A stretch of DNA of 64,000 bases from a candidate division FCPU426 bacterium (GCA_963719085.1 CAVRAL010000005.1:96001-160000); one strand, 5' to 3'. Positions 28,946 through 61,743 are shown, counted from the first letter of the stretch. A program made the numbers and translations. Notes: generated from the sequence alone by a model not told the origin.

Positions 28946-31849
28946 TTAATGGTGAGGCGTTGGAGTAGGAAGCGGGATGCTCCCGGCGCATAACGGCGAA
29001 TTGATGGAGGCGCTGACCGTGTGGCCGTCCAGGGTCCACGAAACCGTCACGTTATAGGGGAACGTAATCCGGAACGCGTCTCCATCACGGCCGGGAACGA
29101 ACTCCGTGGGTTGTTGCCCGTTTCCATAACTCAACGCGTTATCAGCCCCAACCGGAATGGTGACCGCCGTCGGATTGTAGCAATCCTTCATACTGTTGTT
29201 CTGGTAGCCAAAATGGGCGATTACTTGGCTGCCCTGGTCTTCCACGCAATTCAAGAAGGGTTCCACATCGACCCTTGCGCAGCCATTGGCCGTAGGCGTC
29301 GCCGTGGGAGGGACCGGCACCGGGGTGTCGGTATTGGTGGCCGGCACAGGAGTATAGGTGTTCGTCGGCGCGGGCACCGTATTGGTGAAAGTGGGCAAGG
29401 CCATGGTAGGCGTGTTGGTCGGAAGCGGCGCGACCAGGGTAAAGGTCGGCGTGGCGGAAGGCGGTACCGCCGTGGGCGTCAAGGACGGAGTCACAGCCGT
29501 ATTCGTGGCTGTCGCCGGCGGCACCGTGGCCGTATCCGTTGGCGCGAACATCACTGGCGTTTGGGTAATCGTGTCGTCCGGGGTATCCGTGGCGGTTGGA
29601 GGCACCACCGTGTCCGTATCCGTCGGCACCGCGATGACCGGCGTTTGTGTGGCCGTGTCAGCCGGAGTATTCGTATCCGTCGGGGAAACCACTGTGGCTG
29701 TTTCGGTCACGACCGGCGTAGCCGTCCAAGTGGCTCCGGGTTCAGGCGTATCCGTGGGTGTTTCAAACGGGGTCACCCCGGCCGTGGGCGTACCGGTGGC
29801 GGCCGGCGTTGGAGTTTGCGGTGTAGCCGCCCCGGTGGACGACAAGACCAACAACAATTGGGCCTGGACCTGCTGACCCTGGGCTTGCGCCGTCAAGGTG
29901 GCTTGATAGGTTCCGTCCGGCAAAGCCGTCCCCTGGCTCAAAGCGTCCCAACCCAATTGATTGCGGCCGGACTGGCCGCCAAAGTTCCCCGCGGGGTAAT
30001 CCTGCTGGTAGACCACTTGGCCCGAAGGCGATTGAATGGCCAGGTGCACGGAGGCGGCTTCCGACAATTGATAGCTGATATCGGTGGATGAAAATTCCGG
30101 ATCAAAGGGATTTGGATCGGCCGTGAACCCCGAAAGGGCCAATACGATAGGCGTCGGTGTCGTTGGGATGGCTCCGGCGGACAAGGCGAACTTTTCGACC
30201 CGGGCGTTTCCGGTATCCGAAACGAAAAGATTTCCTTGTCCGTCGGGAATGGCGCAGTAAGGCTGGTCGAATTGGGCGCCGCCCGATCCGTAACCCCCGA
30301 AAACCGCCAAGGGATTTCCGTCCAGCCCGAGTTTAATCACCAAATCATGGACACTGTCCGTTATCCAAAGCCGTCCTTGGGCGTAAACCAGTGAGGTCGG
30401 GGTCCAGTCTTGGGAAAGCCCGGTCCAAGTGGTGACCGGATCAAACCCCGGGTCATAAACCTCCACCACGTGGGTCAATCCGTTGAGGGCGTAAACCAAG
30501 CCCGCGTCATCCACGGCCATGCCCGCGTAAGAGGTGCCGCCTTGCAATCGGCCGGAATAAAGGTATTGGCCGTTGAAACCGAAACGATGGAGGGTCCCGC
30601 CATCCAACGCGTAGATCCCGGAAGCGGCTGTCTTGACGTCCGTAGGCGCCAACAATATCTGGTTTCCGAGCACCGAATCGCCGTCGGGATCAAGGCTTTC
30701 GACACGGTTGTTTCCGTCATCCGCGACATAAATCACGCCCGCGGGATCCACCGCTAAATTAACCGCTTGGTCCATTTCGCCCAGCCGATTTCCATATTGG
30801 CCCTCATTGCCCTGCCAACCTTCCACCGGTCCCCATTCCTGCACGGTTTGGTTCTTCTGGTCCAAAACAAAAAGATTATTTTGGGATATCGCCAATCCAG
30901 CCGGAATACCCCCGTTCGGGAGGATGAGCGATTGGCTGAAAGCTGGCGTGCCGACCTGCACCGAAATTTTTTCAACCGCCGCCTGTTTTTGTGAATCCAA
31001 AAATTGCAAATCATAGGCCCCCGCCGGCAAGGCGCGGGTATCCCAATCGGTGGACCAGAAAGCGCCCTGGTTTTGGGACGACAAGTCGTTCCATTGGTCC
31101 TTCCCCGACACGGACCACTGTATTTTCCATTGGGGCACGGAAGGCCGGACGGCAATCTGGACCAAACCGCAAACCTGCTCCCCATTCCAGGGTGATGAGA
31201 TGGGACTTGTTTCGGACTCCACCCCGGTGACATCCAGGGGCGGCCGGGGATCCTTCCCGCTTTGGGGATCGATGTCCTGCCCGTCGATCCATTCGGCGAC
31301 CAAGTTACCCCGGTAATAAAGGCCCACAGTAGGATTCTCGAAATAAACCGTTCCATCCCCGCACTCGGGAGCCTTGCTGTAATCCATCTCCGGTTCCATG
31401 TTGTCCCAGCCCGAATAATGGTAGGAGAAATAACTGTCTTGCCAGACGCCCCCGGGCGGAAGCGCGGACGCGTCGGTATTTTTCACCGCCACTTCCCAAT
31501 CCGCTAATTGGTCCAAGGGGTAAGCCATAAACCGGTTCATAGGCGAGGTGACGACCGTGACACCCTGCACCGACCAAACCCCCTGCGGGGTGGTCAAAGA
31601 TCCCGCGGTCCAAGACTGGGACTGGATGGGTTCGGCCCCATGGACCCAAAGATGGACTTCCAAATCCGACAAAACTATTGGCTGGGTCCCCAGATTCTTG
31701 ACGAGGAACCTCCAACCGGAAAAATCCGTGGCGCATTCCACCCGGCGCATCTCCAAGTCCAAAACAGGGGCGGTGGAAGTTTGAGCCCCTCCCCGGCCAA
31801 CCAGGGCCATGAAGAGGGCTAGGCCCAGGAGCATGTTTGTCTTTTTCAT
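28946..31849 (-). CDS. Secreted multidomain protein: CBM3-like, Ig, NHL propeller, FlgD-Ig, Pro/Thr stalk, Cys-containing C-terminal domain
   Basis: Signal peptide; [14 protein letters not shown]...DYS...LYYRG; NHL repeats; ADPNPFDP...WDA...LPDGTY; GAGG SD before ATG 31849. Confidence 0.85.
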
Positions 31850-31860
31850 GGTTTTATTCC

Positions 31861-34800
31861 TCATGGGGTCGCCGTAGGCGTAAAGGTTTTGGTAAAGGAT
31901 GGGTTCACCGTCGGCGTCTTGGTAGGCGTCCGCGTCACGGTAGGCGTGAAAGTCTTGGTAAAGGACGGGTTGACCGTCGGAGTCTTAGTAGGCGTCTGCG
32001 TCACGGTAGGCGTAGGCGGAACCGGTGTATTCGTGATGGTCTTCGTCGCCGTCGGGGTCAGCGTGATCGTCGGCGTCTTAGTGAAGGTCGCGGTCGGTCC
32101 CGGCGTGTTGGTCTTGGTCGGCGAAAGCGTAATTGTCGGCGTCTTGGTGAAGGTCGCGGTCGGTCCCGGCGTGTTGGTCTTGGTCGGCGAAAGCGTGATT
32201 GTCGGCGTCTTGGTAAAGGTCGCGGTCGGCCCCGGCGTGTTGGTCTTGGTGAAGGTCGGCGAGATCGTCAACGTAAAGGTGGGTGTCACGGTACTGGTCG
32301 GGGTAAAGGTGAAAGTTCCGGTCTGAGTGGGGGTCTTGGTCGGGGTGGACGTAAAAGTCAAGGTCTGCGTAGGAGACCAAGTAAAGGTGGGCGAAACGGT
32401 GGCTGTCCAAGTCGACGTGAAGGTCCAGGTCGACGAAGGGGTCCAAGTGGGCGTCGACGTAGGCGTAAAGGTTCCTGTGAGGGTGGGGGTAAAGGTCGAA
32501 GAGATCGTGGCCGTCCAGGTCGGCGTGGCTGTCCAAGTGGGGGTGAAAGTCCACGTAGACGACGGGGTCCAGGTATTGGTAACAGTGGGAGTGGGCGTGA
32601 TCGAAGGCGTCCAAGTGAATGTCGGTGTAACCGTAAAGGTCGGTGTATTCACGATGGGGATGGTGGGCGTAACCGTCGGACGCGAACAGGAAGTGAAGCA
32701 AAGCGGTTCCAAGCCCGTATTGGGATCAGCTTGGGTCGAGTTGATCCATTCGCTGGCCAGCACGCCCTTGTAATAAAGAGCGAAATGGTTGTCCGAAATG
32801 TATCCCAGATCGGGCCAAACGGCGTCCGCGCAGCCGCCGGTTTGGTTATCCGGCATACGGCTGTAATCCTGGGAATCGTTTCGATTGGCGTTGTCCGCCC
32901 GCATGAAGCCGATAAGCGCGTCCACCCAACCGCCGCCCGGTTGGATCACCGTGCTGTCGGTGTTGGAAACCGTGAACTGCCAATTGGCCACGCGGCCAGG
33001 CGAGTCAAAACATAGGGAAACCGGCTGGGCCAAGATGGCCACGTTCTGGACGTCGGAGGCGTTCACATCCATACCGCCGGCCTCATGCTGGCCGCCATAC
33101 CAAATATTGGTGGACCAAGCCTGGGTGGAATCATCCACCCACATCACGATCGAAAGGTCGGACAGGGTCACCGGTTGGGAATCCTGGTTTAGAACCTGGA
33201 AGCGGTATTTGGACTCGTTCGGCGCGCACTCGACCTTGCGCACCCGCAGGTCGAGTTTCGGGTTCGCGCCGCAGGCTATCCGGGTGGCCGTGGGCGTGGC
33301 CGTCACCGTGGAGCTAGGCGTCGGGGTCGGCGTCCAAGTAAAGGTTCCCGTCGGGGTGCTGGTCGGCGTAAAGCTCGGTGTATTCGTGGGCGTCCAAGTG
33401 AAGGTCGACGTGGCTGTGGCCGTCGGGGTCCAGGTTTTCGTAAACGTCGCCGTGATCGTGGGCGTCCAGCTCGGGGTCGGAGTCTTGGTCCAAGTGGGCG
33501 TCAGGGGCGGCGTCAGGGTACCCGTCGGCGTCTTCGTGGGCGAAAGCGTGTTGGTCACCGTCGGCGTCTTCGTGGGCGTGAACGTATTGGTGATGGTCGG
33601 TGTCATGGTGATGGTTTTGGTCCAAGTGGGCGTGAATGAGGGGGTGGGAGTCTTGGTTGGAGAAGGCGAATTCGTGATGGTCGGTGTGTTGGTGATCGTC
33701 GGCGTGTTGGTCGGTGTCTTGGTCATCGTAACCGTAAAGGTATTGGTGATCGTAAACGTGTTGGTCACGGTAGGGACCACGGTCAAGAGGGTCGAGACGC
33801 AGGTGGGCGCCGCGGAACCGCAGGGCGCGATGCGCACGATTTTGCTTTGGGGAGCCACCGGGGCGAAGAAAAGACCGGGCAACTGGGCGCACCAATTGCC
33901 GAAGATCGAAGTTCCCGAGGAGCTGGCTTGGTATAGCGACTGGTAGTTTAGGTTGTTGTCGAAGAAGTACACCCGGTTTGAACGGGTCGTGCTGGCTCCG
34001 CCATTGTCCACCACGTACACGTTGCCAGAAGGATCCACCCCAATGGCGGCCACTTCGTTGATGATTCCAACCGGCGCCCCTTGAATGGGGAACCCATCGG
34101 TGGCCTTGGCCGTAATCTTGCCCGAAACCAGGTCAATCCGGTTCACCACGTCCCCGTCGCCCACAAACAAGTGGCCCGACCGGTCCAGCGCAACCGAGGT
34201 AATCGTTCCCGCGTAGGAATTGGTCGTGTCGGGTCCATAAATTTCCTGGATAGGCGAGCCGCCCCAAGGCGCGTACTCGTTCACCTGGCCGGCGTAGGAG
34301 ACATAAAAATTACCGCCGCTGTCCACCGCGAAGCCCCCGGCGTCCGCCGTCACGGCGGCCGTGGCGATATAAGCGCCGGTGGTGGAATTGAATTGATCGA
34401 TTCCTGTCCCCGAGGAGTGCGTATCGGCCACATAAAGTATGCTTCCATCCGGGCTCAGAGAAAGCGCCGTCACACTGCTGATGCCGCTCCCTCCCCCGGT
34501 GGTAGGCAGGACGAAGGAAGAAATCACGTTACCGCAGGCGTTATAGGCTTTAAGGCTATTGGTGCCGAACTGGACATACATATTGCCCGAGGGCGCCTGG
34601 ACCATCTGAACCGTTCCCACCACACTGCGCGCCGGAATCACCTGGCTCCATTGCCCGTTGATTTGTAAGCAAACCGGGTTGAAAGTCGGCGTAATCGTGG
34701 GCGTGAAGGTAGGCGTCGCCGTGGGCGTGCGAGTGAACGTAGGAGTCCATGTATTGGTGATGGTCCAAGTCAGAGTCACGGTTTTCGTCGGTGTCGGGGT

Positions 34801-37800
34801 TTTCGTCGGTGTCGCAGTCCAGGTCGGCGTGGAAGTAATTGTGTTTTGTGGGGTTATCGTTGGTGAAGGGCTCCCGCAAACAGGAACCGTCACGTTGCAA
34901 GGAGCGATCTTGACTATACGGTTGTTCCCGCTATCCGTGGCGTAAATGATTCCCTGTCCATCGACACCCAAAGAACCGAGTTCCACATTGGCCATATCGT
35001 TCACTGTGAAAGTTGCCACTTGGGTTCCCGTGGCCGTGAACTTATCGATCACGTTCGGGGCGCTAACGGCATAGAGAAAATCATTGGAATCCGCGGCAAC
35101 ACTGACCCAGTTCTTATTGGTCGTCCCAAAAGTTGCCTCTGGAGCGCCCAAGGGCGTGAAGGAAATAATGCTCATGCCCACACTATAGCTTCCGCCCATA
35201 ACGTAAAGCGTTCCAGCAGGGCTGACCGCAACATCTCTTACAAACGGAAGCGAGTGAAAGGTCCCGGTCGTACCCGGTATAAATCCGGTCGTCCCATATT
35301 CGCCGAGTACGTTTAACGAAGAATCTGTTTTCCAAACAACTGCAGCAGCAGGTATGTTTTCGGCGGCATACAGATTACCTTGACCGTCCACTCCAATCTG
35401 TTGATAAGGCGTATAACTACTGTTGGACGTATCTAAATATGGACTGATCGTCGCTGGCAAGTTGTTTACAAAGTAACCATTGGAATCCAATTGATTCACT
35501 ACCCCTAATGGGGGATTTGGTTGCGGTGAAAAAACGTTGTAAAGAATTGATCCATCCCAGCTAATCCCAGCCAGTTGGGAAACGGTAACTGGCGCAAATG
35601 GCACATTTAATCCCGTAAAGCTCCCCTCAATGTTTCCACAGCTATCAAATTTTTCCACAACAATGCTAGTTCCTTGCGTAACGTTTAAGAAAACATCCCC
35701 GGCAGGATCAACCTTCATATCGGGGATATCGGTGATCCCACCCAGAGTATAAGCCTGCATATTAGTTACCGGCCACGATCCGGCAAATTGGTAACAAACA
35801 TTCGGCGTGGCTGTGATTGTCGGAGTCCCAGTGTTGGTCGGTGTTCCGGTAAATGTCGGCGTGGCCGTGTAATTATCATAAGTTTGGGCGACGCCGTTGC
35901 CTTCGTACCAATCACCCACGTTCCCCGCGGCGTCAATCGCCCGGGCGCGGAAATAATAGGTCACGCCGGAAGTCCCGGTGAAAACCGTTTGGCTGACGCC
36001 CGCGCCTGGAATTTCAGTCCAAGCGCCGTTGGAACCGGCCCGGTCTTGAAGGTCATAAGAGGCCACACCCGAATCCAAAAGGCCGCCCTGAGGGACCGGA
36101 TCCAAGAGCTGGTAGGTCACGGTAATGGCTGAGGCCAAAACCGTGCCTGGGCTGGAAAACAGGTTCTCCACTAAAGGCGCGGTGCGGTCGGCCAAGGTGG
36201 TGGTGACATTGGAGTATTCGCTTTCCACCAGGCCCGTGACGGGAACGGTGTAATGGACTAAGAGACGCACCTGGTAATTAACGCCGTCCTGCGGCGCGGG
36301 GATAACCGTGCTTCCCGAGTTGAAGGCCACATGGGTGGCTATGGTTGAATAGGCCCCTCCATTTTGGGAAACTTGCACGTCCGCAAAGAGGTTCACGCTG
36401 TCAAACCCGTCTTGGGAAGGATCGCCGGTGATGGATTGGCCGTTCAGGGTCCAGGAAACCGTGAAGCCTGCCTGGTTGGAATTGACCGGGGCCGAAAGGA
36501 TTACGGGGAATTGGATGGGATCCTTGTCGACCACGACCGTCACGGGAAGTCCGTTGTCCGGAAGGCGGTTGGCCAGGGTGCCCGGGTAGCCAGTGCCGTT
36601 GAGGGCGGTGTTGCCCAAAGCGTCGGAGGATTGGAAGCTAAGCACCACAGTCCCGGAGTTATCCTCCACGTCAAAGGGACCCGAGTAGCCGTAGGAGCGT
36701 TGGATTCCGGTCGTGAGGTCGTTCAAGGTATAGAACAAGCCCTTCAAGCCTACCGCGGCGTCACCCGAAACGGCCGGCACATCAGTGACGGCCAGGCTTG
36801 CCACCGCCCCCGGATTCACGTGATAGGCGCCCGCGTCGTCCTGATACAGCACGGGCGAGAGGGACACGGACTGGCGGGGGGCTTGGTTGTCGACCGAGAA
36901 GACCACACTATTCGGGTTCTCATAGAGGGTGGCCGGGGCCGAGGACGGCACCGGATTGGTATAGGTTGAGGAATAGGTCAGGGTATAGGTTCCCTCGCCC
37001 AAAGACGAAAGATTAAAGGAGCCTCCATACACCGTGGACGGCACCACGACCGCCGATGTAGCGGTGTTGATGATTGAATAGGTGGTCTGGTTAAAGCTAT
37101 AGACCGTGACGCCGAAAGAAGCTGTGGGCGGAGCCTGGAACTGAATAGGCGTCGAGCCCGTGACGAAAAACCCGGTCGTACCGCCCACCTGGGGCTGGCC
37201 GACTAAAAGCTGGGTCAAGCCCGCCAGCGTAGGCGGCTGGCCGGCCGTGGAAAGGGTCAGGGCCAAAGTTTTGACCGGTTCGGCGTTGCCCAAATTATCC
37301 ACCGCGAAGTACTGCACGGTATTGGAGCCGATTTGACCGCCCGTCAAAGCGCCCGCCGTCACTTGAGTGCCCAGGAAGGTCTGGGGCGCGCCGCCATCCA
37401 CCGTGACCACGATGAAGGAAACTCCGCTGCCCGAATCCTGCGAGACGAAGGAAAGCTGGGCCAGCGTATTGACCGAGGCCTGGGTGGGGCTGGTGGCAGG
37501 CGGCGTGTCATCGATCACGATGGGACAAGACTTAATGGTTTCCACGTTCCCGGTAACGTCGGTGGCCCCAAAGTAAATGGTATGGGGGCCATCGGAAAGG
37601 CCCGCCAGGATAAGCGGCATGGAATAGGTTCCAGGCGCGGTCAAGGATCCAAGTCCCGTAGTCAGGGTGCTGGGGTCATAAGAATATTGTTGGATCGACA
37701 CCGGCACAGCGGCGGTCGAAACAAGCGTCACCGGCGTGGAGTGCAGGTTGTTGGCTCCTGCCACATACGTGACTCCCCCACCTATATAGAGGGGAGTTCC

Positions 37801-40800
37801 CCAAACTAGGCTGGAAACCGGCGGATTGGCCTCAAATTGAGCCGGCAGGGATAATCCGCTCTCATTACCAGCTTGGTCGACGGCCGAAACCTGGTAGGTG
37901 ACCCCCGCCGATCCCGACGGCACCGGGACGGAAAGGCTGTTGCCGGAAACCATACCATCGAAGAAGGCCAACCCTTGGGTAGTGGCGGCCACAATGCGGT
38001 GCAGTTCCGTGCCCAAAGCTGTTCCCAAACCCGACAGGATTGAATTCGAGCCGAAGAACTGGGACAAGTCGTTGTCGTTTAAGGCCGTGTAATTAAAGTT
38101 TGAATCATAGCCATATTGGTTCACCACATTGCCCTGGGCGGTTTGCAGGTAAACCAGAAGCCGGTCGCCGGCCCAAGCGGTTCCCAATACCGGCGCGGGC
38201 TGGCTGAAATCGGTCACGTTTTGCAGGATGCCCGATCCCACCCGCAGAACTTGGAGACCTTGGAGGCTGGAGAGATAAAGCAGGTTGCCTTCGGTGGAAT
38301 CCGGCACATCCAAGAGCCCGGTGATTTCCTCAACCGCCAGATTCGGCGTCCCTAGTTCATAACCGTCGGAGCGGTAAAGGCGAGCCTGGACCCATTGGTC
38401 CTGAGCTTGGAACTGGGCCATGCCCAGGAAGCCTTGGGTTCCGCCCGCGTTTTGGAAAGCGGCAAAGAGCATGTGGTTCGTGCCGAAGGCCACCGCGGTG
38501 GCGACATTGGCGCCCGGATTACCGGAAGCTCCAAAATTCCAGGCTACGGTCGAAACCACCGGCGCGGGAATCTGGGTGAAGTCCAGCAGGTAAAGACCGG
38601 ACGAAGTTCCTACGGCCGCGACCACGCGTCCGTCTTTTTCATCAACATCAAGCGCCGTCACTCCGCCTGGGACGGCGGGATTCGTGGAGGCGTTGAAGCC
38701 GGCGATCGGCTGATAAGAAGTGGTATCAATGATGGACACCCCGCCGTTGGTGAGACCCGCGACGGCCCAGCGGCGATGGACGCGGATTTTGGCCACATCC
38801 AGACCCGGCAGGATCGACTGTTGGTTCATCACGATACCTGTTACCGGATTAAGCACCACGAGGCCGTTGGTGGTCGCCACCCAGGCCAGGCCGCCGTTCA
38901 TGGCCACGTCCCTCACCTGGGCGCCGGGCAGTAAGGAGGTTAAGAGGCCGGGCACAAAATGGGCCACGCCGTTTTCATAGAGACGGTAACCGGCCAAGGA
39001 AGCGTCGCTGACCGCGTTCCAACTCAGGTTTTCAAGGCCGCCCGCAGGAGGCACCGAGGTTAGGTTAGCCGGAACCGCCGGGGCTGTGCGGTCATCGGTT
39101 ACCTGAATCGCCTCAAACCCGCCGCCGTTGGAAACGCCCTCGCTCATGGAACCGCCTTCCACCAAACCATTGGAAGATAAGGCTGTCAGAACATATTGGT
39201 CGCCCGCGTTGACCGCCACTGAGCCGTCTTGCGCCCCCGAAAGGAGGGTGACCGGGGTCAGGGTGGAACCGGACAGTTGGCCGACGGACAAAAGCGAGTT
39301 TCCGTAGGCGCCGTAGTTGGCCGTTCCAGCCGCCGGGGCGGTAAAGGTAACGGACTTGGCCAAAGGATAAGCCAAAGTCACGCCCTGGATGTTCGGCGAG
39401 ATAAAGGGATCATAGGATCCGCCGGAAGGCGAATTCGTCATTGTCACCGCCACGTCATAGCTGGCCGCGGGGCCCGAGCCCGCGTTGATGGTCATGGGCG
39501 AGGACCCTGGAACGACCGGCAGGAAGCTTCCCGAACCCGAGGGAGCCCGGGTGCCCGGCGCCAGGAAGGTCGTCCCCGCCGGGAAATTGCCATAGAGATT
39601 CAATACTCCCGCCAGTCCGGCGGACGGCACGGACGGAAGGGTCACATTGGTAAAGGTGACCGCGCCTTGCGGCAAATAAGCTTGCGCATATTGGTTATTG
39701 TCGGCTTCCACCGAAGTCGGGGCCGAGTTGCCGGCCGCGTCAATCCAACTAAATTCGGCCACGGCGAAATCACGGGGGGTGTAATTGTAAGTCTGCCCCA
39801 CGCCCGCGGTGTGATTGACCGAGGGACCCACGCTTAAATTACTGGTGTTTTGGGTCAGATAAGCCGTGACCCTCACCATGGCCGGGGCCGAACCCGAGGA
39901 CAGCTGCAAAGACGATAAGGGAACGATGATTTCCCCTTGCGGGACCGTCGAATCGATGTCCTGCTGGGCAAAGAGGGTCACGGGCGTCTGGCTGTTATCG
40001 CCCGCGTTAGCCATGGGTTGACCGACCACCGAGTAGGTGAACACGGCGCTGGGACCATAAAAATAAGTGGTGACCGGTTGCCCCCCGAACTCCATCTCAT
40101 CCTGCGGATTGGTGTCGATGACTTGGCTGACCGATCCGGACGGCGGCGTGGTATTGCCGGTCGATTCGACATAATAATCATCATAAGGAACCGCGAGACC
40201 GGCGACGTTAAAGCTCAAAGAAGCCGCTCCCGAAGAAGGCAGGTTCAGCACCTGGCTGGCCGCCACAAACTCACCCGGGCTGTTGGGTTCGGAGACCGCT
40301 CGCGGGGCCCACCCCAAATGCAGGGCGGTATTCGGCACGGCGCCTTGCACCGAGCTGGCGATAAAGCCCGGCGGAACGTGGGCGCTGGTGGACAGGGTCC
40401 AACCCGGCACCGGATTAGAGGCCAAGTGGGGCGTACCGTCCGTGTCAATCGCGCTGAAGATCGACAGCGGCAAGCTCGCGGTGGAAGTCGAGCTGATAAA
40501 GTTAGGATTCTCAAACAAATTGGTGGCCGGCAAGGACGCCGGGGTGCCGAGGACCGCCCCGTTCTGAAGTCCGCCGGGGATATTGTTGACCACGGACACC
40601 GCGTAGGTTTCCGCCGTCAGGTCCACCCGCACCGGCGAGGCCCCTTCCGGATCCAGCCGGGTGTCCCACAAGTACTGGTCACTGCCCGAGCGGGCGGTAT
40701 TGTCCACCGACAATTGATAAACCGGATTGCTGTTGGTGGCCGCGGGGTTCACCGTCAGCGTCGCCGAAGACGCGCTGACCTGGCCAAACTGGTCTACCGC

Positions 40801-52644: not shown

Positions 52645-52654
52645 AATTTCACTC

Positions 52655-53545
52655 CTAAGGTATTGGCAACCCCAGCTGGGACGAACTCGACAATGCAATA
52701 AACGAGTCCGGGGGAGACTGAGGAATTTCTTTAATCAGAGAATTATTCACATAAATATAATAAGTCGGAAAAATTTGCGTGTTTGAATAAGAACCACTGT
52801 CATTGTTTATAAAAAAATTAGGCACAAATGTTCCATCGGCATTAAACTTCAAAACCGACCAAATCCAAGGAGTTGACATCTGATTAACCGTTTGATTAAT
52901 GTCTTGTCCTAAAGCGTCTATTTGCCCTTCGCAAATTTGAAAAAAACCACTTTGAGAATAAGTAAGTCCGTTTTTTCCGTTGTTCTCGCTTACATCGGGC
53001 GGAGCAGGATCAAGAATTCCGCATGGATCTGGAGTACTGCCAACCGAAACAAACGAATTCAAAATATTATCGCTATCCGGAACTATTGTTTTTCCGTCCG
53101 TCGAATCAAATTCAACTTTTAATTCATTGTAAAGTCTAAAGTCTCCATTAGCTAAAATTTCGGCAGGATTAATAAAATTTCCCGGAATTTGATTGCTAGA
53201 GTTTTTCAATAAAAAAGCGTTCGCATATTCTCGATTAGCTTCAGCCAAAGAAGTACCTTGATCTAATAATTCAGGCGTGCCGAGAATCCACGCGCTAAGC
53301 AAAGGTCCACAAGACACCTTTAGATTTAAAGCATTAACCAAAGCAGAATCGGCTCCCGACGGATATGAAATATCATCGCCATTTACAAATGCCAAGATAA
53401 TCACATCGTCAGTTGGATTAACCGTAACTGTTTGGGCAGGAATCGAAAATACTGGCAACTGATCCGCAGCCAATTCTTTGAAATCAAAAATCATCAAAGA
53501 AAAAATGATTAATGAAAATTTAATTCCCCAAAGTGAAAATTTCAT
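52655..53545 (-). CDS. Secreted hypothetical protein (AT-rich)
   Basis: 296-aa ORF with hydrophobic N-terminus; no family recognised. Confidence 0.7.
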   Translation of the reverse strand: MKFSLWGIKFSLIIFSLMIFDFKELAADQLPVFSIPAQTVTVNPTDDVIILAFVNGDDISYPSGADSALVNALNLKVSCGPLLSAWILGTPELLDQGTSLAEANREYANAFLLKNSSNQIPGNFINPAEILANGDFRLYNELKVEFDSTDGKTIVPDSDNILNSFVSVGSTPDPCGILDPAPPDVSENNGKNGLTYSQSGFFQICEGQIDALGQDINQTVNQMSTPWIWSVLKFNADGTFVPNFFINNDSGSYSNTQIFPTYYIYVNNSLIKEIPQSPPDSFIALSSSSQLGLPIP

Positions 53546-53572
53546 AAAAAAATCCCCATAAACCGAATAGTT

Positions 53573-54307
53573 TTATTTAACCGAAAAAACCGAAACCGGA
53601 ATAGTTTGATCCACTTCATTCGTCGTCACATCCATGTCCGAGATGACATCAAAGTTAGTAGTGTGAGATTCCGTATGCACATGCTGAGGGTGATAAGTGT
53701 TACCGATCTTCGTATAGGTGGCATCCATGGTTAACACCTTCTTCCCCGTAGGATCCAAGCCTTCCATGTGAGTAATGGTGCTACCCGTAGGATCGATCTT
53801 GAGAGTGGCGTGATCCATGCTCTTGGGCATCTGGCCGCCGCTGAGGGTAACTTCGTAATGACCGCCCGGGGGATCCCCCGCGTCTGTTACGGCTTGGGTA
53901 CTGGAAGTGGCGAAATTGGTCACGCTATTGGACAGTACTTGGAAGGGATCAATCGGAAAGGGGGACTTGACCGGCGAATACTTCCCCGTAGTGGGATCCT
54001 GCACATAGAGATATCCATCGCCAACGGAAATCATCGCGCTTTTTTGGACGCTGTTGTCGATGATGACCTTTAAATAGCTGGGCTTCTCTTTGAACATCTC
54101 GGTAGTTTGAACAATGGTCGTAGGTCCCTCGCCGGGCTTTTGGATGATCGTGGAGCTTTTATAAATGATGTGCTGGCTGTTATTGGTGACATGGGTTCTG
54201 TTTTGAACGTTCTGGAGCAGGTCGTGGGCGCTGGGCAAGGCCCAAGCAGGCGAGGAACAGCTAACAATTAAAAAGAATAGGTTGAAGGCTTTTCGAAACT
54301 GGGCCAT
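53573..54307 (-). CDS. Secreted LolA-like fold / lipoprotein-sorting-like protein
   Basis: Signal peptide; EKPSYLKV, ISVGDG.LY and C-terminal IPVSVF pattern typical of LolA-like folds. Confidence 0.6.
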   Translation of the reverse strand: MAQFRKAFNLFFLIVSCSSPAWALPSAHDLLQNVQNRTHVTNNSQHIIYKSSTIIQKPGEGPTTIVQTTEMFKEKPSYLKVIIDNSVQKSAMISVGDGYLYVQDPTTGKYSPVKSPFPIDPFQVLSNSVTNFATSSTQAVTDAGDPPGGHYEVTLSGGQMPKSMDHATLKIDPTGSTITHMEGLDPTGKKVLTMDATYTKIGNTYHPQHVHTESHTTNFDVISDMDVTTNEVDQTIPVSVFSVK

Positions 54308-54387
54308 TGGGCTTTCCAAATAAGTGACTTAAAAATAATGCTTAATTTTTAATAAAAATTAAAACTGACCAATAAAATAACCAGCAA

Positions 54388-54416
54388 ACGATATAGCGAT
54401 TGGCAAAACCCGTCAA
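54388..54416 (-). promoter_or_regulatory. Putative sigma70 promoter for the LolA-like to giant-gene block
   Basis: TTGACG-17 bp-TATCGT; a second AAACTTGACGG copy at 54442-54452. Confidence 0.55.
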
Positions 54417-54502
54417 GTTTTAAAAGTGTTAATAATTTAAACCGTCAAGTTTCCCGTTTCACAGCCTTCAAGATAATTCCTAACAAAACCAATCCCAAAA
54501 AC

Positions 54503-55609
54503 TTAAGACTTCCGGTTTAAAACCGGCGTCGGCGAAGGCGTCGGTGTAATAACCGGTTTGGGCCCCAAAGTAGCGGTCGCAGTCGGAATCGCGGGCCAAA
54601 TGGCTTTGAGCGGCAAGATAATCGTTCCCTCCTCTTTCGAGTCCGTCACAATTTTCAATTGACCTTCCAAACCCTTGTCGGTCGACTGTTTTAAAGCGCC
54701 GGCATCCACCCGCCATTGGATGATGAAATTGCCGACCGAATCCTTACCGAAATCATAGCGAAGCCAAGAAGGCAACCCGTCGATGCGCGCGATTTTAAAA
54801 GGATGTCCGTATATCTGGCGGATCTGGGTATTGTCCCGCCAGTCCTTCAATCGAGAGGGATCCAAAACACCTAAGTCCAAGAAAGCCGGCATGACAGTCC
54901 AAACACTTCCCACTGAAGCCATGAAGGGATAATCAAACGCGGCGCTTTTCGACTCCGTCCCAGCGATGTGGATTGTGCCGTTGTAAGAACCCGGAGCCGC
55001 GTTTTCTGGAATCGTCAATTGCACGTCATAAAGACCGGGGGTCGCCAAAGCCGTCACGGCCGCCTGGAAAGGCCCCGGCGTCACCTCGGGCGTTCCCGGT
55101 TTCCAACGAGGATATTCTTTTTGGACCAGTTTTAAGGTTCCATGTCCTTGGTGGGAATGTCCCGAAAGAACGTAACCACCTTCCAAAACGGGCGGCTGAA
55201 ACGTGTAAGGCGATTCAAGCTCGGCCGTAAACAAAAACTGTTCGGTATTGCGGCTGATACCGTGGATCTTGTCTTGGGAATAAACTTGAAACTTCACCAC
55301 AAAGTTTTTCAATCCATTCAACCCCGCGGGCGGATGATAATCGATCACCAACCAAGTGGAGGTTTTGGGCTTCAAGACCGCCTTGACGATATGCGCCGTG
55401 GTGCAGGAACAGTCAGCCTGCAGGTTCCACATGGAGAGCGTCTGGTTAGTGGGGTTGGTGAGCTTGGCTTTGATTTGGTAGGACTTACCGGACGCCACTT
55501 TACCGAATTGGTGGTACTTCGGAACCATCACGATTTGGGCTTGCGCGGTTTGCGACAATAAAAAGGCGGCGAGGAAAAACAGAGGTAGAAGTGAATTCAT
55601 TTTCCGCAT
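54503..55609 (-). CDS. DUF1573 Ig-domain secreted protein
   Basis: HQFGKV...LTNPTNQTL...ADCSCTT...LKP motif; signal peptide. Confidence 0.8.
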   Translation of the reverse strand: MRKMNSLLPLFFLAAFLLSQTAQAQIVMVPKYHQFGKVASGKSYQIKAKLTNPTNQTLSMWNLQADCSCTTAHIVKAVLKPKTSTWLVIDYHPPAGLNGLKNFVVKFQVYSQDKIHGISRNTEQFLFTAELESPYTFQPPVLEGGYVLSGHSHQGHGTLKLVQKEYPRWKPGTPEVTPGPFQAAVTALATPGLYDVQLTIPENAAPGSYNGTIHIAGTESKSAAFDYPFMASVGSVWTVMPAFLDLGVLDPSRLKDWRDNTQIRQIYGHPFKIARIDGLPSWLRYDFGKDSVGNFIIQWRVDAGALKQSTDKGLEGQLKIVTDSKEEGTIILPLKAIWPAIPTATATLGPKPVITPTPSPTPVLNRKS

Positions 55610-55861
55610 AGATATAACTCCACCATAATAAAAATTCAAAAAACAGAATGAAAAACCTTTTAAATATCGAACATCTATACCAAGAGTTCCTTATTTTACG
55701 GACCCTGCGAAAGATAACAACTAAAAAAGATTCCCAACCAAGACGGGAATTTTTACTCCCCCATTAAATTTTTAAGCTTCCTCTGGACATGGGCCATAAC
55801 ATTTTGGAAAATGCGCCTGTATCGACGGATTGGGTTTTCTATATATAAGCGGAGGACAATC

Positions 55862-56278: not shown

Positions 56279-56280
56279 CC

Positions 56281-59200
56281 CTAAAAATTCATCGTATAGC
56301 TGGCGTTGCCCTGTTGGCTCAAAACAAACGGATTATCGGCCCTGGAATAGCTCCAATTCACGGCCAAGGTGGTGTTTGAATTCAGGTTCGCCGATAAAGT
56401 CGTCTGAGCGGTCTGGATAGTGGTATCCACTTCCCCACTCGATCCGTTGTATTGGTAGCTGGCGGTCCAACTCAAAAAGTTCCCAGGCCTCCAGGTAAAG
56501 CCCGCCGCCGGGCTATAGGTAAAAACCGTTCCGCCTTCCAAATGATCCACCGTCTCCGTAAAGCCGCCCTGTTCATAAATCGACAATTCTTTCGAAAGTT
56601 GTTCGTTGACCTTCAGGCTGAAGGTATGGGCCGTGGTGAAAGCGTTCAAACTGTTGGTCGAGAATGTCGTGTTAAAGGTATCGGGACCGTAGGGCAAAAG
56701 CGGATTGGCGATATTGCCCTGGCCCGGCGAGACTTGGTTGAGTTGGTTATAGGTGTGGCTAAGGGTGAAGGTGAAAATCGGCCCCGCAGTCCAAGCCACG
56801 GCGTCGTTTTCCGTTTGGGTCAGGGTTTGGGTCGCGATGGTCGCCCCGCCGGACAGGTTTTGTTGTTCCTCGTTCACCCTTTTGTAACTGACCTGCGCGT
56901 TCACCTGTCCCAGTGGTTTTTGTCCGGTCAGGTTGGTGGTTTCGGTTTGCTGGTAAAAATTCAGCGGAAACCCGGCGGTGGAGCTGTCCCAGGTCCAATA
57001 TTGATCCAAGGTATAGTCGGCGGAAAAGGTTCCAAAGCCGGGGGTCAAAGCGGCTTTGTAGTATTGATGCAAGTTTTCAGAAACGGTCACACCATCCGGC
57101 ACCAGGATATCCAGTTGAAAGGAAGGCTGGGTGGTCAGCTTCAGCCAAGTCAGCGGCGTCATTTCCAAGGAACCCGATCCGGTATGCAAGTCTTCCGGAA
57201 CCGTGGCGCCCAAAGCCTGGGTTTGCTGGAATTGCAGGCTGTAACTGCCGTTGGAATTCAGCCACTTCAGGGGATCGGTTTGGTAAGTGGCCGAAACCTG
57301 GGCTTGGGGCGGCCCCGGCGGCGCGTTGGAATAGGATCCTTTCCCGGTCAAGGTCAGGTGGTCAAGGGGCTTCCCTTCCATCGTAAAGTTATAAGTTTGG
57401 GACGGGATATTGTTGCCCGGCGCGGTTTGGGGAACCGAGGTGTTGGTTCCCGCTTCCACGATGTCGGTAAGTTTCCACTCCCCCGAAAGGTCGAAATTAA
57501 AATTTTTCCATTTCACGCTGGAAACTTCCGCGCTCCCGCCATAGGAATTATTCTCGCCCAGGTTGGTGCCCGTCTGGCTTTCCTGCAAGGCGCTGGTCTT
57601 TAAGGACAGGCTGGCCGGCAGGGTCCAAATCAAACTGGCCGTGTTGCGCAGGTCGCCCTGGGTCATGGGGCTTAGGGGATTGGCCTGGGTTTCCTGGCTG
57701 TTGTAATAAACATAATCAAACTCGGGCCAGCCGCCGGGCTTGTCCCTGGCTTCACCATGATCCGTGGTGGTTTCGTCCTCGTATCCCAAACTGGAATTCC
57801 GTTGGTAGGTCCGGTCCACCTGCGCGTAAAAATTCGCGCCCGCCTTATAGTCGGCCTGGGCCATCCAATTTAAAGTATCCCCGCTGGTCAAAAGATTGCC
57901 GATGCTGGTGAAGTTAGGGCTGGTGCCTGAAATTTTTCCCACGAGATGAAAGGGACCCTGAAAAGTCTCGCCGTCCAAATAATAAGCCGCCCCTTCCAGG
58001 GACGGCGCTAAAGCCGGGTCCAGGCTTTCTTGGATTGAGCCGTCAATTTCCCCGCTCAACTTCAAGCGCGGCCCCAAGTTTAAAGTACTGTCCAATTCCA
58101 AGATGTGGGTATCAGCCGCCACCTGTCCTGTCGCCGTGGTCACATTGGCGTCAGGCTGTTCGATCTGGCCCAAGTAACCCTGGCCGATCACCCATTGGAC
58201 CTCCGAGGGGGATACCGTCGCCCCCTGCGGGGGCAATGCCTGCGTCGACAGACCTCCGCCTACCGGAGCCGCCGTGAGCGATGTGGACGCCATCGCCGAA
58301 ACCGGCTGTCCCGGAACAGTTAACGGGACTCCCGCGAAATTACGGTTGACCAGGGACGGCGGAGACGCGGAGCTACTCGAGGGCAGGCTGTCCACCTTCC
58401 CGATCAAGGCCACGTCCGCGTGGTACCCAAAAATTTGGGTGTTGAAAACCGAACTACTGCTTTCGGCCGTCACTTCCACCACGTCCGTCAACTGAATGAC
58501 CCGGCTGATGAAGGTCAATTGGCCCAGGGTATAGTCCAGGCTGTAGTCCGTGCCTCGGGCGAGCTTTTGCCCGTTCAGGGTCACCACTTCGCTTCCCGGC
58601 ACCAGCGGCACCGTGGGGATCAGATAGGGGCCCTGGGTGTTGTTCCCGAAAAACTTGTCGTAAACGGGCCTGCCTTGGGGCGTGGCGTAAAGGGCCGTCA
58701 CATCCCAATTGTCATAATGGCCGGTCAACTTAAGCCCCGTCGTGGAAAGTCCGCTGGAAAGAAATTGGCTTCCCGGAAGGGAGGCCGAAAAATCCCCGAA
58801 ATAAAGATCCCAGTGCTTGGTCGAAAGGGTCAGGTCATACTCGTCCTGTAAGGCCAGGTCCGACTGGGCGAAATTGCCCGAAATTTTCACCTCGTCATTC
58901 AACTGCCCTTCCATGTGAAGCGTCAGGGTCTCGTTCCGGTTATAGCCCGTGTTGGTGATGCCCGTCGTGGTATTCCCCTGGGCCTCGGAATAAGAGAGAT
59001 TGATGGTCTTGGACCCGGTTACCTTAAAGGTCGGCGTCTTTATAACCGTCGGGGACGGCGAGGGAGTGGTCTTGACCGTGGGAACCGGCGTCGCCGCCGT
59101 GACCGGCGAAGACGGCGGGGCCTGGGGTGTCGGGGGGCTGGTCACGACGACAGGGGTGGTTTGGCTTTGAAGGGTTTCCCTTTCTTGCGTGACCTGTTGC

Positions 59201-59571
59201 GGCGATTTATCGGCGATGCCCACCAAAACTTCCTCGCTGGGAAACAAAATCGTTTGACCCGGATGGATCAAATCGGGGTTCGGAATGGAGTTGAATTTTA
59301 AAAATAAAGGCCACAACCAGGGCTTTCCGTAAAAGGAATCCGCCAAATCCCAAAGGGTGTCGTCTTGTTCGATGGTGTATTGTTTTAACACCGGCACCGC
59401 CGGAACCGGGGTGGACAAAACCAGCGCTGTTGGAACCGGACTCACCGCGGCAGGAACCGATGCCAAAGGGACTATCGCCGTCGGCGCGGGGGTTTGACCC
59501 CAGGCTTTTAAACCCGGCAAAGCCAGCCCCGTGATGATTCCGTAAAGTGAAAGGTAAAAAAAACGTTTCAT
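56281..59571 (-). CDS. LysM-domain, SprA-like large outer-membrane beta-barrel protein
   Basis: LysM YTIEQDDTLWDLA...NPDLIHPGQ; SprA-like PGSEVVTLNGQKLARGTDYSLDYTLGQLTF; long amphipathic strand region ending YTMNF. Confidence 0.72.
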   Translation of the reverse strand: MKRFFYLSLYGIITGLALPGLKAWGQTPAPTAIVPLASVPAAVSPVPTALVLSTPVPAVPVLKQYTIEQDDTLWDLADSFYGKPWLWPLFLKFNSIPNPDLIHPGQTILFPSEEVLVGIADKSPQQVTQERETLQSQTTPVVVTSPPTPQAPPSSPVTAATPVPTVKTTPSPSPTVIKTPTFKVTGSKTINLSYSEAQGNTTTGITNTGYNRNETLTLHMEGQLNDEVKISGNFAQSDLALQDEYDLTLSTKHWDLYFGDFSASLPGSQFLSSGLSTTGLKLTGHYDNWDVTALYATPQGRPVYDKFFGNNTQGPYLIPTVPLVPGSEVVTLNGQKLARGTDYSLDYTLGQLTFISRVIQLTDVVEVTAESSSSVFNTQIFGYHADVALIGKVDSLPSSSSASPPSLVNRNFAGVPLTVPGQPVSAMASTSLTAAPVGGGLSTQALPPQGATVSPSEVQWVIGQGYLGQIEQPDANVTTATGQVAADTHILELDSTLNLGPRLKLSGEIDGSIQESLDPALAPSLEGAAYYLDGETFQGPFHLVGKISGTSPNFTSIGNLLTSGDTLNWMAQADYKAGANFYAQVDRTYQRNSSLGYEDETTTDHGEARDKPGGWPEFDYVYYNSQETQANPLSPMTQGDLRNTASLIWTLPASLSLKTSALQESQTGTNLGENNSYGGSAEVSSVKWKNFNFDLSGEWKLTDIVEAGTNTSVPQTAPGNNIPSQTYNFTMEGKPLDHLTLTGKGSYSNAPPGPPQAQVSATYQTDPLKWLNSNGSYSLQFQQTQALGATVPEDLHTGSGSLEMTPLTWLKLTTQPSFQLDILVPDGVTVSENLHQYYKAALTPGFGTFSADYTLDQYWTWDSSTAGFPLNFYQQTETTNLTGQKPLGQVNAQVSYKRVNEEQQNLSGGATIATQTLTQTENDAVAWTAGPIFTFTLSHTYNQLNQVSPGQGNIANPLLPYGPDTFNTTFSTNSLNAFTTAHTFSLKVNEQLSKELSIYEQGGFTETVDHLEGGTVFTYSPAAGFTWRPGNFLSWTASYQYNGSSGEVDTTIQTAQTTLSANLNSNTTLAVNWSYSRADNPFVLSQQGNASYTMNF

Positions 59572-60746
59572 GAGCCCGGTAAAGCTCCCCACCCGCCCAC
59601 GGTGATCTTGAAGCGGCTTTCCACGGGCGCTTCAGCGTTTAGTTGGTAATGAACCACCTGATTCTGTTCGGCGTCGATGAGGAAAAGCTGATCGTTCCAA
59701 AGGCTTAAGGCCGTGGGTTTGACGGCGCCATCCGTGGCCAGGGTTTGAAAAACCCCGCCGTTCCCGTCCAAAAGATAAATCAGCGCCTGGGACGAGTCGC
59801 TGACGAGGGCGAAATCCTGCGGGCTCACCGCCATGCCCGCCACCGCTCCAAAGGCCGGGACCGGCTTCAAGGAACCGGTCACGCCGCCCGTTGAATTTAA
59901 AATCTGGACCTGGGTCTTATTGGTCCTGATCCAATAGTTCCCGTTGATTTGAAGAAAAGGGCCGTCGTTGCCCAGCGAAAAGGGAGAGCCCAGTTCATCC
60001 AATACGCCGCCCGTACTGGTGATGTGAAAAAGAATTCCTTGGCCCGAATCCGAAACCCAAAAATCGGCGGCTCCGCCTTTTTGGATGAAAACCGGGCTCT
60101 GAAATCCCAAAGCCAGCTGGTTGGAAGGGGTCACCTGGACGCCGGTTAACTGCCGCACCTCCCCCAGGTAAATTCCCCGGCTGTCAAAACGGGCCAACCG
60201 TTGGTTTTGGGAATCGCAAACGGTCAATAGGAGCCCGTCCCAATCCACATCCGTGGGCTGGCTCAGCCCGGAGCTTCCCCCGCCAAACTGGCCGACTGAC
60301 TGTAGAAACGCGCCTGTATCGGTCAAAAGCTGAACCCGCTGGTTGCCCGTATCCGCGACCGCCACCGTCAAACGGGCCCCCTGGGGGTAAGCGCAAAGAC
60401 CCTCAGGATTTAAAAAGCGGCCGGGCCCCGCGCCCAAACCGCCGAAGGCGCCCATCCATTTCAAGTCCCAACGCGCCAATGTCAAAACCGCCGTGTAATC
60501 CCCCGCCGGCAAGGTCTCGCCCTTGTCATCCCGGCCGTCCCATTGGGTCTTCAAGGATCCCACGGGAAAAGCTTTATCCTTTTCCAAGACCCGGACCGTT
60601 TGCCCCGCCGCGTCCATGATCCGGATCGTTCCCAATCCGCTTTGATCGACCTCAAACTGCGCCGGATACAGCCGTACGGGTATGCTTTTCATTTCCACGC
60701 AACCCGGCAGGAACGCCAAGGCCAAAATCCAAACCCATTTTTTCAT
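59568..60746 (-). CDS. Lipoprotein with FlgD-Ig domain and NHL propeller
   Basis: Lipobox LPGC; WDGRDDKGETLPAGDY; VADTGNQRVQ repeats; ATGA overlap with the next gene. Confidence 0.85.
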   Translation of the reverse strand: MKKWVWILALAFLPGCVEMKSIPVRLYPAQFEVDQSGLGTIRIMDAAGQTVRVLEKDKAFPVGSLKTQWDGRDDKGETLPAGDYTAVLTLARWDLKWMGAFGGLGAGPGRFLNPEGLCAYPQGARLTVAVADTGNQRVQLLTDTGAFLQSVGQFGGGSSGLSQPTDVDWDGLLLTVCDSQNQRLARFDSRGIYLGEVRQLTGVQVTPSNQLALGFQSPVFIQKGGAADFWVSDSGQGILFHITSTGGVLDELGSPFSLGNDGPFLQINGNYWIRTNKTQVQILNSTGGVTGSLKPVPAFGAVAGMAVSPQDFALVSDSSQALIYLLDGNGGVFQTLATDGAVKPTALSLWNDQLFLIDAEQNQVVHYQLNAEAPVESRFKITVGGWGALPGS

Positions 60747-60798
60747 TCGCACGCGCCTTCTCCTCTCATCCATTCAAGCTGTCGCCCCGTCAAGCCCG

Positions 60799-61743
60799 TC
60801 ACCACTTCACGCTTAAGGTCAAACGCGAAGGATATCCATCGGCCGCCTGGGCGAGGTAGGTGTAATCCACCCTCACTTCCTTGAAAACTTTTTCCGGGTG
60901 CGCGACCAGCCCGACCCCCAAACTGGCGGTCTGGTTGTTCGCCCCTAGCCTTAGGAAAACATTGTCGAGCCAGGACGCTTCTAACCCGCCGCCCCATCGG
61001 GTCGCGGCGTCGTCCCAAAGGTCTTTTTGAATTCCGGGCTCGAGAGTGAAGGAGACGGGGCCCACACGGGCCCATTTCCAAGCGCAAGCCGCGGCCCATT
61101 GGCCCAGAATCATTTCGGGAGGACTGCCGTCATTAAAGCGGATGACACGGTTGCCCGGGTCGCTCAAGACGAATCCCAACCGGGCGTTCTTCCCCAACGC
61201 CAAGTCCGCGGCCAAGTCCAACCCCCAGCCCGAACCTTCCGTGCTCGCGAAATCCACTAGGTCGTATTTGAGGCTGGCGCCCAGGGATAGAAAGCCGAAT
61301 TGGGCCGCCGCGGAGGCGTAGAAACGGTTGTCGCTTTGGGTAAAAAAACCGAGGACTTGGGTGAGCGGCTGGCCCGTGGAAGGATCCACTTCGACCTGTC
61401 CGTTGGAATCGCGCACAATGCCGTATTCCACTTGGTTCTGGACCGCCAGGGCATCCCATCCGAATCCCAGCGCGATCCCCGGCAAGAGGGGAAAACCCCC
61501 GCTGACCTGAAAGTCAAACTGGTCCACGGCAAAGCGGTTTTGGGTGTACGCGGTTTCGAGGGAGTCGGCGAGGGTCAGCAAAGCGGGATTGACGAAAACA
61601 GAAGTGGCCACCGGGCTGTCGGCGATCGCCAAACCACCCAAAGCCAAGTCGCGGGCATCCGTCACGGTCTGAGCCGCTCCCGAACCTACCGATAAAAGGC
61701 CGCCATATATGGAAAGGATAATTAAACCAAAAAGCTTATTCAT
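60799..61743 (-). CDS. PorV/PorQ-like (FadL-fold) outer-membrane barrel
   Basis: DARDLALGG...SVFVNPALL N-terminal motif; GASLKY, GLDLA, FLRLG, RVDYTY; C-terminal LSVKW. Confidence 0.75.
   Translation of the reverse strand: MNKLFGLIILSIYGGLLSVGSGAAQTVTDARDLALGGLAIADSPVATSVFVNPALLTLADSLETAYTQNRFAVDQFDFQVSGGFPLLPGIALGFGWDALAVQNQVEYGIVRDSNGQVEVDPSTGQPLTQVLGFFTQSDNRFYASAAAQFGFLSLGASLKYDLVDFASTEGSGWGLDLAADLALGKNARLGFVLSDPGNRVIRFNDGSPPEMILGQWAAACAWKWARVGPVSFTLEPGIQKDLWDDAATRWGGGLEASWLDNVFLRLGANNQTASLGVGLVAHPEKVFKEVRVDYTYLAQAADGYPSRLTLSVKW

Follow-up and report, generated by a model that had tools for sequence, protein, structure and literature searches.

A candidate outer-membrane module with a PorV-family barrel and a LysM-bearing SprA relative beside giant secreted proteins of an FCPU426 bacterium

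Passages of PMC10994853 describe type 9 secretion as a system of the Bacteroidota in which a SprA pore with a cap, carriers of the PorV type and the GldKLMN motor, which is driven by protons, act together. In the same passages, SprA is a 36-strand barrel on which PorV docks, its cap and lateral opening are central to the mechanism, and the loading of cargo needs no energy. Here, we analysed a 64,000-nucleotide (nt) stretch of DNA from an uncultured soil bacterium of candidate division FCPU426 (GCA_963719085.1, CAVRAL010000005.1:96001-160000), hereafter called the window, which is C5:96001-160000 of a 3.04-Mb genome that is 99% complete in 5 contigs. Within it, a run of genes encodes a PorV-like barrel, a propeller lipoprotein and a large LysM-bearing barrel with sequence similarity to SprA, followed by several secreted proteins, one of them of giant size. 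An earlier note on this DNA had proposed a self-contained, type 9-like export locus for giant, polysaccharide-binding cargo. We instead put forward, as a tentative reading, that the three genes form a conserved outer-membrane module that acts as an accessory type-9-like station for the export or anchoring of neighbouring giant proteins.

The locus shares several features with SprA (Sov) and PorV, as known from F. johnsoniae (PDB 6h3i, 6h3j, 8gl6 and 8gl8). It encodes a very large predicted barrel whose N-terminal strands and first small insert are homologous to those of SprA, and this barrel is encoded beside a PorV-type barrel, near large secreted proteins with Ig-like domains of the C-terminal domain (CTD) type. 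Unlike SprA, the large barrel is half the size (1103 versus 2403 amino acids (aa)), is modelled with no extracellular cap, carries an added N-terminal LysM domain, has a conserved NHL-propeller lipoprotein as its partner, coexists with a full-size SprA and scores far under the cut-off of the SprA family. The setting also differs: there was no GldKLMN match in the genome, and the putative cargo in the window lacks a sorting domain at its C-terminus.

Type 9 cargo can be kept at the surface by barrels dedicated to it, as in SprF with SprB, PorQ with PorZ and PorV with PorU. As in these pairs, a giant protein of adhesin size (6632 aa) is encoded here with a private small barrel, and pairing or fusion of CTD genes with PorV paralogs is common in the genome. 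The window differs in having a second, SprA-related barrel and a LysM tether, neither of which is known from these pairs. The order of a wall-binding domain, a linker and a very large barrel is also that of SlpA in Deinococcus and OmpM in Negativicutes, from which the large barrel differs in having LysM in place of SLH, in a patchy and not universal distribution and in its sequence homology to SprA. For the pairing of a PorV-like barrel with an NHL lipoprotein, a model is offered by BamG-BamH of the Bacteroidota beta-barrel assembly machinery (BAM), which part of PMC12611786 describes as a FadL-family 14-strand barrel holding the N-terminal part of a surface lipoprotein.

The three-gene module and its conservation

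Nine genes, all co-oriented on the minus strand, span positions 28946-61743 of the window, and their coordinates agree with the earlier note. The first three in the direction of reading, which we refer to as the cassette, are as follows:

60799..61743, minus strand: PorV/PorQ-family outer-membrane barrel of the 14-strand type, 314 aa, with a signal peptide and the end ...SVKW (from PorV_fam, PDB profile and fold)
59568..60773, minus strand: lipoprotein of 401 aa with the lipobox LPGC, an N-terminal FlgD_ig domain and an NHL beta-propeller (from Pfam and PDB)
56281..59592, minus strand: LysM domain, Pro/Thr linker and predicted giant barrel, 1103 aa, with the end ...YTMNF (from Pfam, TIGR04189, hhalign and an AlphaFold2 (AF2) model)

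The PorV-like gene is separated from the NHL gene by a 25-nt gap, and the barrel gene shares an overlap of 25 nt with the NHL gene. Both barrels have an aromatic last residue, as is usual in outer-membrane barrels.

The small barrel is a member of the PorV/PorQ family by sequence and fold. By itself, the 314-aa protein matches NCBIfam PorV_fam (NF033709) with an E value of 1.7e-8 and 34.4 bits, below the curated cut-off of 90, and it is the weakest among the 22 PorV_fam matches of the genome. We aligned it with seven orthologs from other cassettes (alignment A2), and all eight match PorV_fam, the best at 1.2e-30. The top PDB match of the A2 profile was PorV itself (6h3i_F, E 1.2e-8), followed by the FadL-type channels CymD, TbuX and TodX. 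The AF2 model of the protein had a predicted local distance difference test (pLDDT) score of 81 and a predicted template-modelling score (pTM) of 0.76. In Foldseek, its top two matches were the PorV chains 8gl6_F (E 1.1e-11, template-modelling (TM) score 0.72) and 6h3i_F (TM 0.70), whereas FadL reached TM 0.53-0.58. BamG (9hiv_F) was also among the fold matches, with PorV the better fit (TM 0.72 versus 0.49), and unlike in the BamG system there is no BamA-type gene in the window. The earlier assignment to PorV was thus borne out. A co-fold of this barrel (A2) with the tandem FlgD_ig region of the giant protein scored 0.00 and carries no weight either way.

Judged from its sequence, the large barrel is a true, if partial, relative of SprA that shares only the N-terminal barrel wall. 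The SprA model TIGR04189 matches residues 317-386 of the 1103-aa protein to model positions 591-660 (E 9.2e-9, 33 bits), and it is the top family for 11 of the 13 members of the barrel family (best 2.5e-13). Using hhalign, the barrel family aligned at 98% to the genome's own 1948-aa SprA and at 99.1% to an alignment of nine SprA proteins of full size from the phylum, pairing residues 185-380 with SprA 229-480 (E 4e-19); this nine-member alignment matches F. johnsoniae SprA at E 1.7e-39. The N-terminal LysM domain was recognised by Pfam (E 6.9e-7), and its closest solved relatives, by comparison of the barrel-family profile with PDB, are TsaP-type proteins of pilus secretins (6ve2_O, E 8.5e-13). 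With PDB sequences as the target, this profile retrieved LysM proteins only, SprA being absent at E up to 1.

We also compared an AF2 model of the 1103-aa protein (pLDDT 73.5) with known structures. The model predicts the LysM domain and helices to residue 144, a disordered Pro/Thr linker at 152-184 and, from residue 188, some 41 long strands joined by short turns, interrupted by a small insert at 316-382 and a disordered loop at 404-463. Foldseek matched LptD, SlpA, MtrB, SprA (rank 7, E 3e-6) and FimD, all with TM <=0.31. The longest alignment found by VIA was that with SprA 8gl6_A, which joins 609 residues and runs through both proteins end to end (model 184-1103 to chain 132-2399; Z 14.4, root-mean-square deviation (rmsd) 8.6, 13% identity). 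The highest Z scores (about 18) were partial overlays on 18- to 24-strand barrels with rmsd 7-12, and the long alignments of lowest rmsd were those with SlpA (7zgx_A, Z 15.7, rmsd 5.5 over 461 residues; 8ae1_A, rmsd 5.0 over 399 residues); OmpM1 was also among the structural matches. The predicted fold is consistent with a SprA-sized barrel stripped of its cap. Of the LysM-SprA-like barrel that the earlier note had described, the LysM domain and the SprA homology of the first 195 or so barrel residues stood, whereas the fold matches are those of generic large barrels. The check proposed there, a structural comparison that might favour generic barrels, came out differently for the two proteins: PorV leads for the small barrel, and for the large one LptD, SlpA, FimD and OprD rank at or above SprA. 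A TonB-dependent receptor or an Omp85 protein was considered for the large barrel as well and rejected, as there was no family match and the sequence homology points to SprA.

The gene between the two barrels encodes the expected FlgD/NHL lipoprotein. Its 401-aa product has a lipobox (...FLPGC), a FlgD_ig domain at residues 48-98 (E 2.9e-9) and an NHL match (E 8.5e-7) in Pfam, and it matches NHL propellers in PDB down to E 1.8e-24. Because the lipoprotein and barrel genes overlap, are paired in relatives and encode a barrel that is modelled without a cap, this propeller may plug or cap the large barrel. The idea that the protein Plug is a relative of the NHL lipoprotein was rejected, the PDB sequence search having given no such match.

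To place the module among relatives, we used the barrel part alone as a query and found it in 10 of 99 genomes of the phylum, the window's own included. It is present in 1 of the 30 other genomes of the window's family and, in three further families, in 6 of 11 (f10), 1 of 5 (f5) and 1 of 2 (f9). A pattern scan of GTDB representatives gave 11 loci, including records of Saganbacteria, Marinamargulisbacteria, Margulisiibacteriota and Termititenax. Cassette composition was read at 17 loci. Of the 15 with upstream sequence, 13 have an NHL-type gene as the immediate upstream neighbour of the barrel, and a PorV-like gene takes the upstream cassette position in 10 of 14. Neither the cassette nor a SprA relative that bears LysM or is of half size turned up in searches of open-access full text, and type 9 secretion in these phyla comes up in PMC7031533 only as a reference.

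Six loci of the phylum are informative about what lies beyond the cassette, having at least 1 kb of further upstream sequence, and in four of them the next upstream gene is cargo-like. Three of these four (L036, L041 and L065) encode giants, from >2000 to >4400 aa long, whose NHL and FlgD_ig domains lie at the C-terminus or close to it; for example, the L041 protein has FlgD_ig at 2001-2051 of 2056 residues. The fourth (L038) encodes a Pro/Thr/Trp-linker protein that ends in a CTD-like domain (tail E 5e-4). The 972-aa secreted protein of the window is homologous to upstream giants at L041 (tblastn E 8.6e-34) and L036 (E 1e-19), and the giant protein of the window shares a FlgD_ig-rich region with a giant in genome G071 that adjoins the cassette. 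Giant FlgD_ig/NHL proteins thus adjoin the trio in several relatives, in line with the clustering that the earlier note had seen in the window. Its expectation of a conserved neighbourhood held for the PorV-like, NHL and barrel trio, across genomes and phyla, and failed for the genes of DUF1573, the LolA-like protein and the two small secreted proteins.

Putative cargo and accompanying genes

The remaining six genes of the run are as follows:

54503..55639, minus strand: secreted DUF1573/Ig-like protein (Pfam DUF1573, E 4e-8)
53573..54319, minus strand: secreted 248-aa protein, possibly LolA-like (TP_0789-like), from an ESM Atlas feature lead
52655..53545, minus strand: secreted 296-aa protein of a family with no match, 37.7% GC (guanine plus cytosine), with a signal-peptide-like N-terminus
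51826..52698, minus strand: secreted HEAT-repeat-like protein, 42% GC (HEAT_2 E 1.3e-5, below cut-off)
31861..51760, minus strand: gene of a giant surface protein, 6632 aa once the extra base at 42551 is omitted (from open reading frames (ORFs), run contigs and Pfam)
28946..31864, minus strand: secreted 972-aa protein with an NHL propeller and an internal FlgD_ig domain (from Pfam and tblastn)

A gap of 641 nt lies downstream of the barrel gene and one of 183 nt downstream of the DUF1573 gene, and the run does not form a single tight operon. After the second gap, the 248-aa, 296-aa, HEAT-like, giant and 972-aa genes form a tight run, at the end of which the 972-aa gene overlaps the giant gene by 4 nt. 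A scan for promoters and terminators was no richer than shuffled controls (8 versus 8.4 expected, and 20 versus 18.1).

In the window, the giant gene is split into two ORFs of 3080 and 3594 aa in different frames. One base at 42551 is absent from the contigs of public runs X1 and X2, which belong to one study and may be the source sample, and omitting this base gives a single open frame of 6632 codons. The length of about 6,630 aa in the earlier note is therefore that of the repaired gene and not of the gene as it stands in the window. The extra base may be an assembly error of the 5-contig genome or a strain variant. The stretch 41800-43300 is present in two soil-metagenome runs.

The giant protein has a signal peptide, a few Ig-type Pfam matches, an OmpL47-type domain, a stretch resembling CBM3 at about residues 3125-3310 of the second ORF and a Pro/Thr tail of 270 residues. 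Three FlgD_ig-like stretches lie near its middle, one of which also matches CHU_C and the tail of PorU. The 972-aa protein likewise has a signal peptide and a CBM3-like stretch, together with an NHL match (E 6.6e-11) and FlgD_ig at residues 594-661 (E 2.6e-7), beyond which follow a Pro/Thr linker and a Cys-containing end domain. The FlgD_ig domains of both proteins are thus internal, as had been noted, and none of the genome's matches to the CTD model TIGR04183 falls inside a window gene. The description of the cargo as CBM3-bearing and of the structure as polysaccharide-binding goes back to sub-threshold matches: CBM_3 (PF00942) scores 18.3 bits (E 0.003) in the giant protein and 12.4 bits (E 0.23) in the 972-aa protein, both below the gathering score of 22.4 bits. 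The two CBM3-like stretches are 32% identical to each other, and a search with the stretch gave no PDB sequence match.

The four genes between the cassette and the giant gene are outside the conserved unit. DUF1573 was found where it had been placed, whereas the LolA-like label of the 248-aa protein is backed by one lead only, an ESM Atlas feature search that pointed to PF17131 clusters (score 0.96, a language-model lead without an alignment), with no Pfam match (hmmscan, E up to 5) and no PDB sequence match. Of 40 other relatives, two, G007 and G021, have homologs of the 248-aa protein, and the 296-aa protein has no family match in Pfam-type scans. The DUF1573, 248-aa, 296-aa and HEAT-like genes gave 0 matches in other cassette loci. 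In G007, homologs of DUF1573 and the 248-aa protein precede a homolog of the giant protein (36% identity over 2511 aa), and the cassette is on another contig. Taken together, these observations indicate that the window joins two modules. The 296-aa and HEAT-like genes (51826-53545) have 38% and 42% GC in a region where their neighbours have 56-59%, which suggests a recent insertion ahead of the giant gene. The place of these two genes between the LolA-like and giant genes is taken in G007 by secreted proteins of 868 and 278 aa (L064 7719-10325).

Two further genes lie on the minus strand beyond the cassette. A gene of the GH12 endoglucanase type (62185-63039; Pfam E 7e-23), whose product has a signal peptide and, at its end, a short Pro/Thr tail, is directly upstream of the PorV-like gene, 441 nt apart; no sorting domain was found behind it in any frame of 61700-62260. 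Next to it, a metallophosphoesterase-like gene with the C-terminal region of acid sphingomyelinase, ASMase_C (63083-63997; Pfam E 4e-7) continues past the end of the window.

Type 9 components elsewhere in the genome and competing explanations

Contrary to the earlier note, the module does not stand as a self-contained machine: it comes in addition to a full-size SprA system encoded at another place in the genome. Specifically, the same genome encodes a full-size SprA of 1948 aa, 22 PorV_fam matches (12 loci over cut-off), 45 FlgD_ig matches and 18 matches to the type-A CTD (TIGR04183), 14 of them over cut-off. At five places a PorV paralog has a CTD gene immediately upstream of it, and four PorV paralogs are fused to FlgD_ig, so private pairing of PorV with cargo is the rule in this genome. 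Among the PorV neighbourhoods examined, only that of the window also holds a barrel. A PorU sortase model matched only CTD-like tails in the genome, with no sortase body. For GldK, GldL, GldM (two models) and GldN there was no match in the 99%-complete genome, in searches without a working positive control; with this limit, the lack of PorKLMN/GldKLMN that had been noted for the window extends to the genome. Most cassette genomes (10 tested) carry a larger SprA-like gene; in G044, only the 901-aa cassette barrel was found, and G050 gave no match.

The PorV barrels that appear fused to a C-terminal FlgD_ig in one ORF lie at C1:750759-751907, C4:42846-43991, C1:779863-780816 and C1:530373-531713 (G000). 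At another locus (L050, G000 C1:939018-949364), the full-size SprA gene (1948 aa) is followed on the same strand, with no intergenic gap, by the gene for a 1499-aa secreted protein.

How might an accessory station for giant FlgD_ig/NHL proteins work? The cargo, in which signal peptides are visible, would be moved across the inner membrane by Sec, and the private PorV-like barrel would capture its FlgD_ig (CTD-like) domain. The cargo would then pass through, or dock on, the SprA-derived barrel, which may serve as a translocon, and the propeller lipoprotein would close or cap this otherwise open barrel. In the periplasm, LysM would tie the assembly to peptidoglycan and in this way bear the load of an adhesin of several thousand residues. 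We regard this reading as quite possible, though short of probable.

A number of observations weigh against it. The match to TIGR04189 has 33 bits, against a curated cut-off of 200, and comes from one 70-residue stretch; SprA homology covers about 195 of about 920 barrel residues, and hhalign reported none beyond 195 columns. The model of the large barrel has a pTM of just 0.47 and does not contain the SprA cap with its lateral opening, Foldseek places LptD and SlpA (E about 2e-7, SlpA second) above SprA, and in VIA the Z scores of FimD and OprD (about 18) exceed the 14.4 of SprA. On the side of the cargo, neither the giant nor the 972-aa protein has a C-terminal sorting domain, and their internal FlgD_ig domains have no TIGR04183 match. 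The full-size SprA of the genome could export all cargo, and no motor or other energy source was identified in the genome. Even within its own family the module is patchy, being present in 1 of 30 other genomes. In the other two of the six informative loci an unrelated gene lies upstream, for a secretin-like protein (L040) or a Tgt-like protein (L037), and the giant-gene block of G007 has a tetratricopeptide-repeat (TPR) protein next upstream and not the cassette. The L040 sequence at 2-1159 covers the C-terminal part of the secretin-like protein, as judged from the sequence by eye.

Some of these same points fit an arrangement in which the large barrel is an anchor only. Here, the full-size SprA would export the cargo, and the PorV-like barrel would bring it to a wall-anchored docking platform of barrel and propeller that has no pore, much as in PorQ-PorZ, PorV-PorU or SprF with SprB. 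The full-size SprA and the many PorV-cargo pairs of the genome agree with this, LysM fits a load-bearing tether, with TsaP-type proteins as its best PDB matches (6ve2_O, E 8.5e-13), the AF2 barrel has neither a cap nor a recognisable lateral gate, and a patchy distribution suits an accessory anchor. However, a barrel of about 41 strands far exceeds the needs of an anchor, the part shared with SprA is the barrel wall and not a docking domain, and the known anchor partners PorQ and PorP/SprF are small barrels. We consider an anchor without a pore rather unlikely.

The accessory station also has a bolder version. In that case, the half-size SprA, cap-less and tethered to the wall, would together with a PorV carrier of its own and a propeller plug make up an autonomous, motor-independent mini type 9 system for giant adhesins, common to the phylum, Saganbacteria and Margulisbacteria. 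This we hold to be doubtful.

It is very unlikely that the module serves uptake. The large barrel, the FadL/PorV-type barrel and the surface propeller lipoprotein would then capture and import a polymer fragment, as has been proposed for TonB-receptor loci of the ddbABCDEF type, with the GH12 enzyme and the CBM3-like giants as the capture apparatus. PorV_fam proteins do occur outside type 9 secretion, as the model matched in Bacteroides thetaiotaomicron, which is not known to have a type 9 secretion system. Further points for uptake are the GH12 gene directly upstream and the ddb locus itself, in which, according to part of PMC12478041, an outer-membrane transporter acts with lipoproteins of unknown function. 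Yet GH12 is not next to the cassette in other loci, and the conserved neighbours in relatives are giant CTD-type proteins and not enzymes. The barrel, moreover, is related to SprA and not to TonB-dependent receptors, and no plug or TonB-box domain was found in the Pfam scan or the AF2 model.

Finally, a giant porin that staples the outer membrane to the wall through LysM, with its neighbours incidental, would recall SlpA and OmpM in its order of wall-binding domain, linker and barrel, and SlpA gives the lowest-rmsd long alignments and the second Foldseek match, with OmpM1 also matched, but such a tether is very unlikely, as a housekeeping function would be expected to be universal and the barrel is in 10 of 99 genomes, and as it leaves the conserved coupling to PorV-like and NHL genes and the SprA homology unexplained.

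Significance for type 9 secretion

The locus departs from the type 9 scheme in that a smaller, apparently uncapped SprA relative is tied to a private PorV-type barrel and a propeller lipoprotein. This module lies near giant surface proteins and recurs in distant candidate phyla, and no motor gene was found in the genome. Should the module turn out to transport or anchor these proteins, one could learn from it which parts of SprA are enough for a working protein, and how export of this kind could proceed in the absence of the known motor. As for the mini type 9 system, it would, if real, be a simpler and perhaps ancestral version of a machine that is considered to depend on GldKLMN and to be confined to the Bacteroidota and their allies. 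The three-gene cassette is a compact target for expression and cryo-EM.

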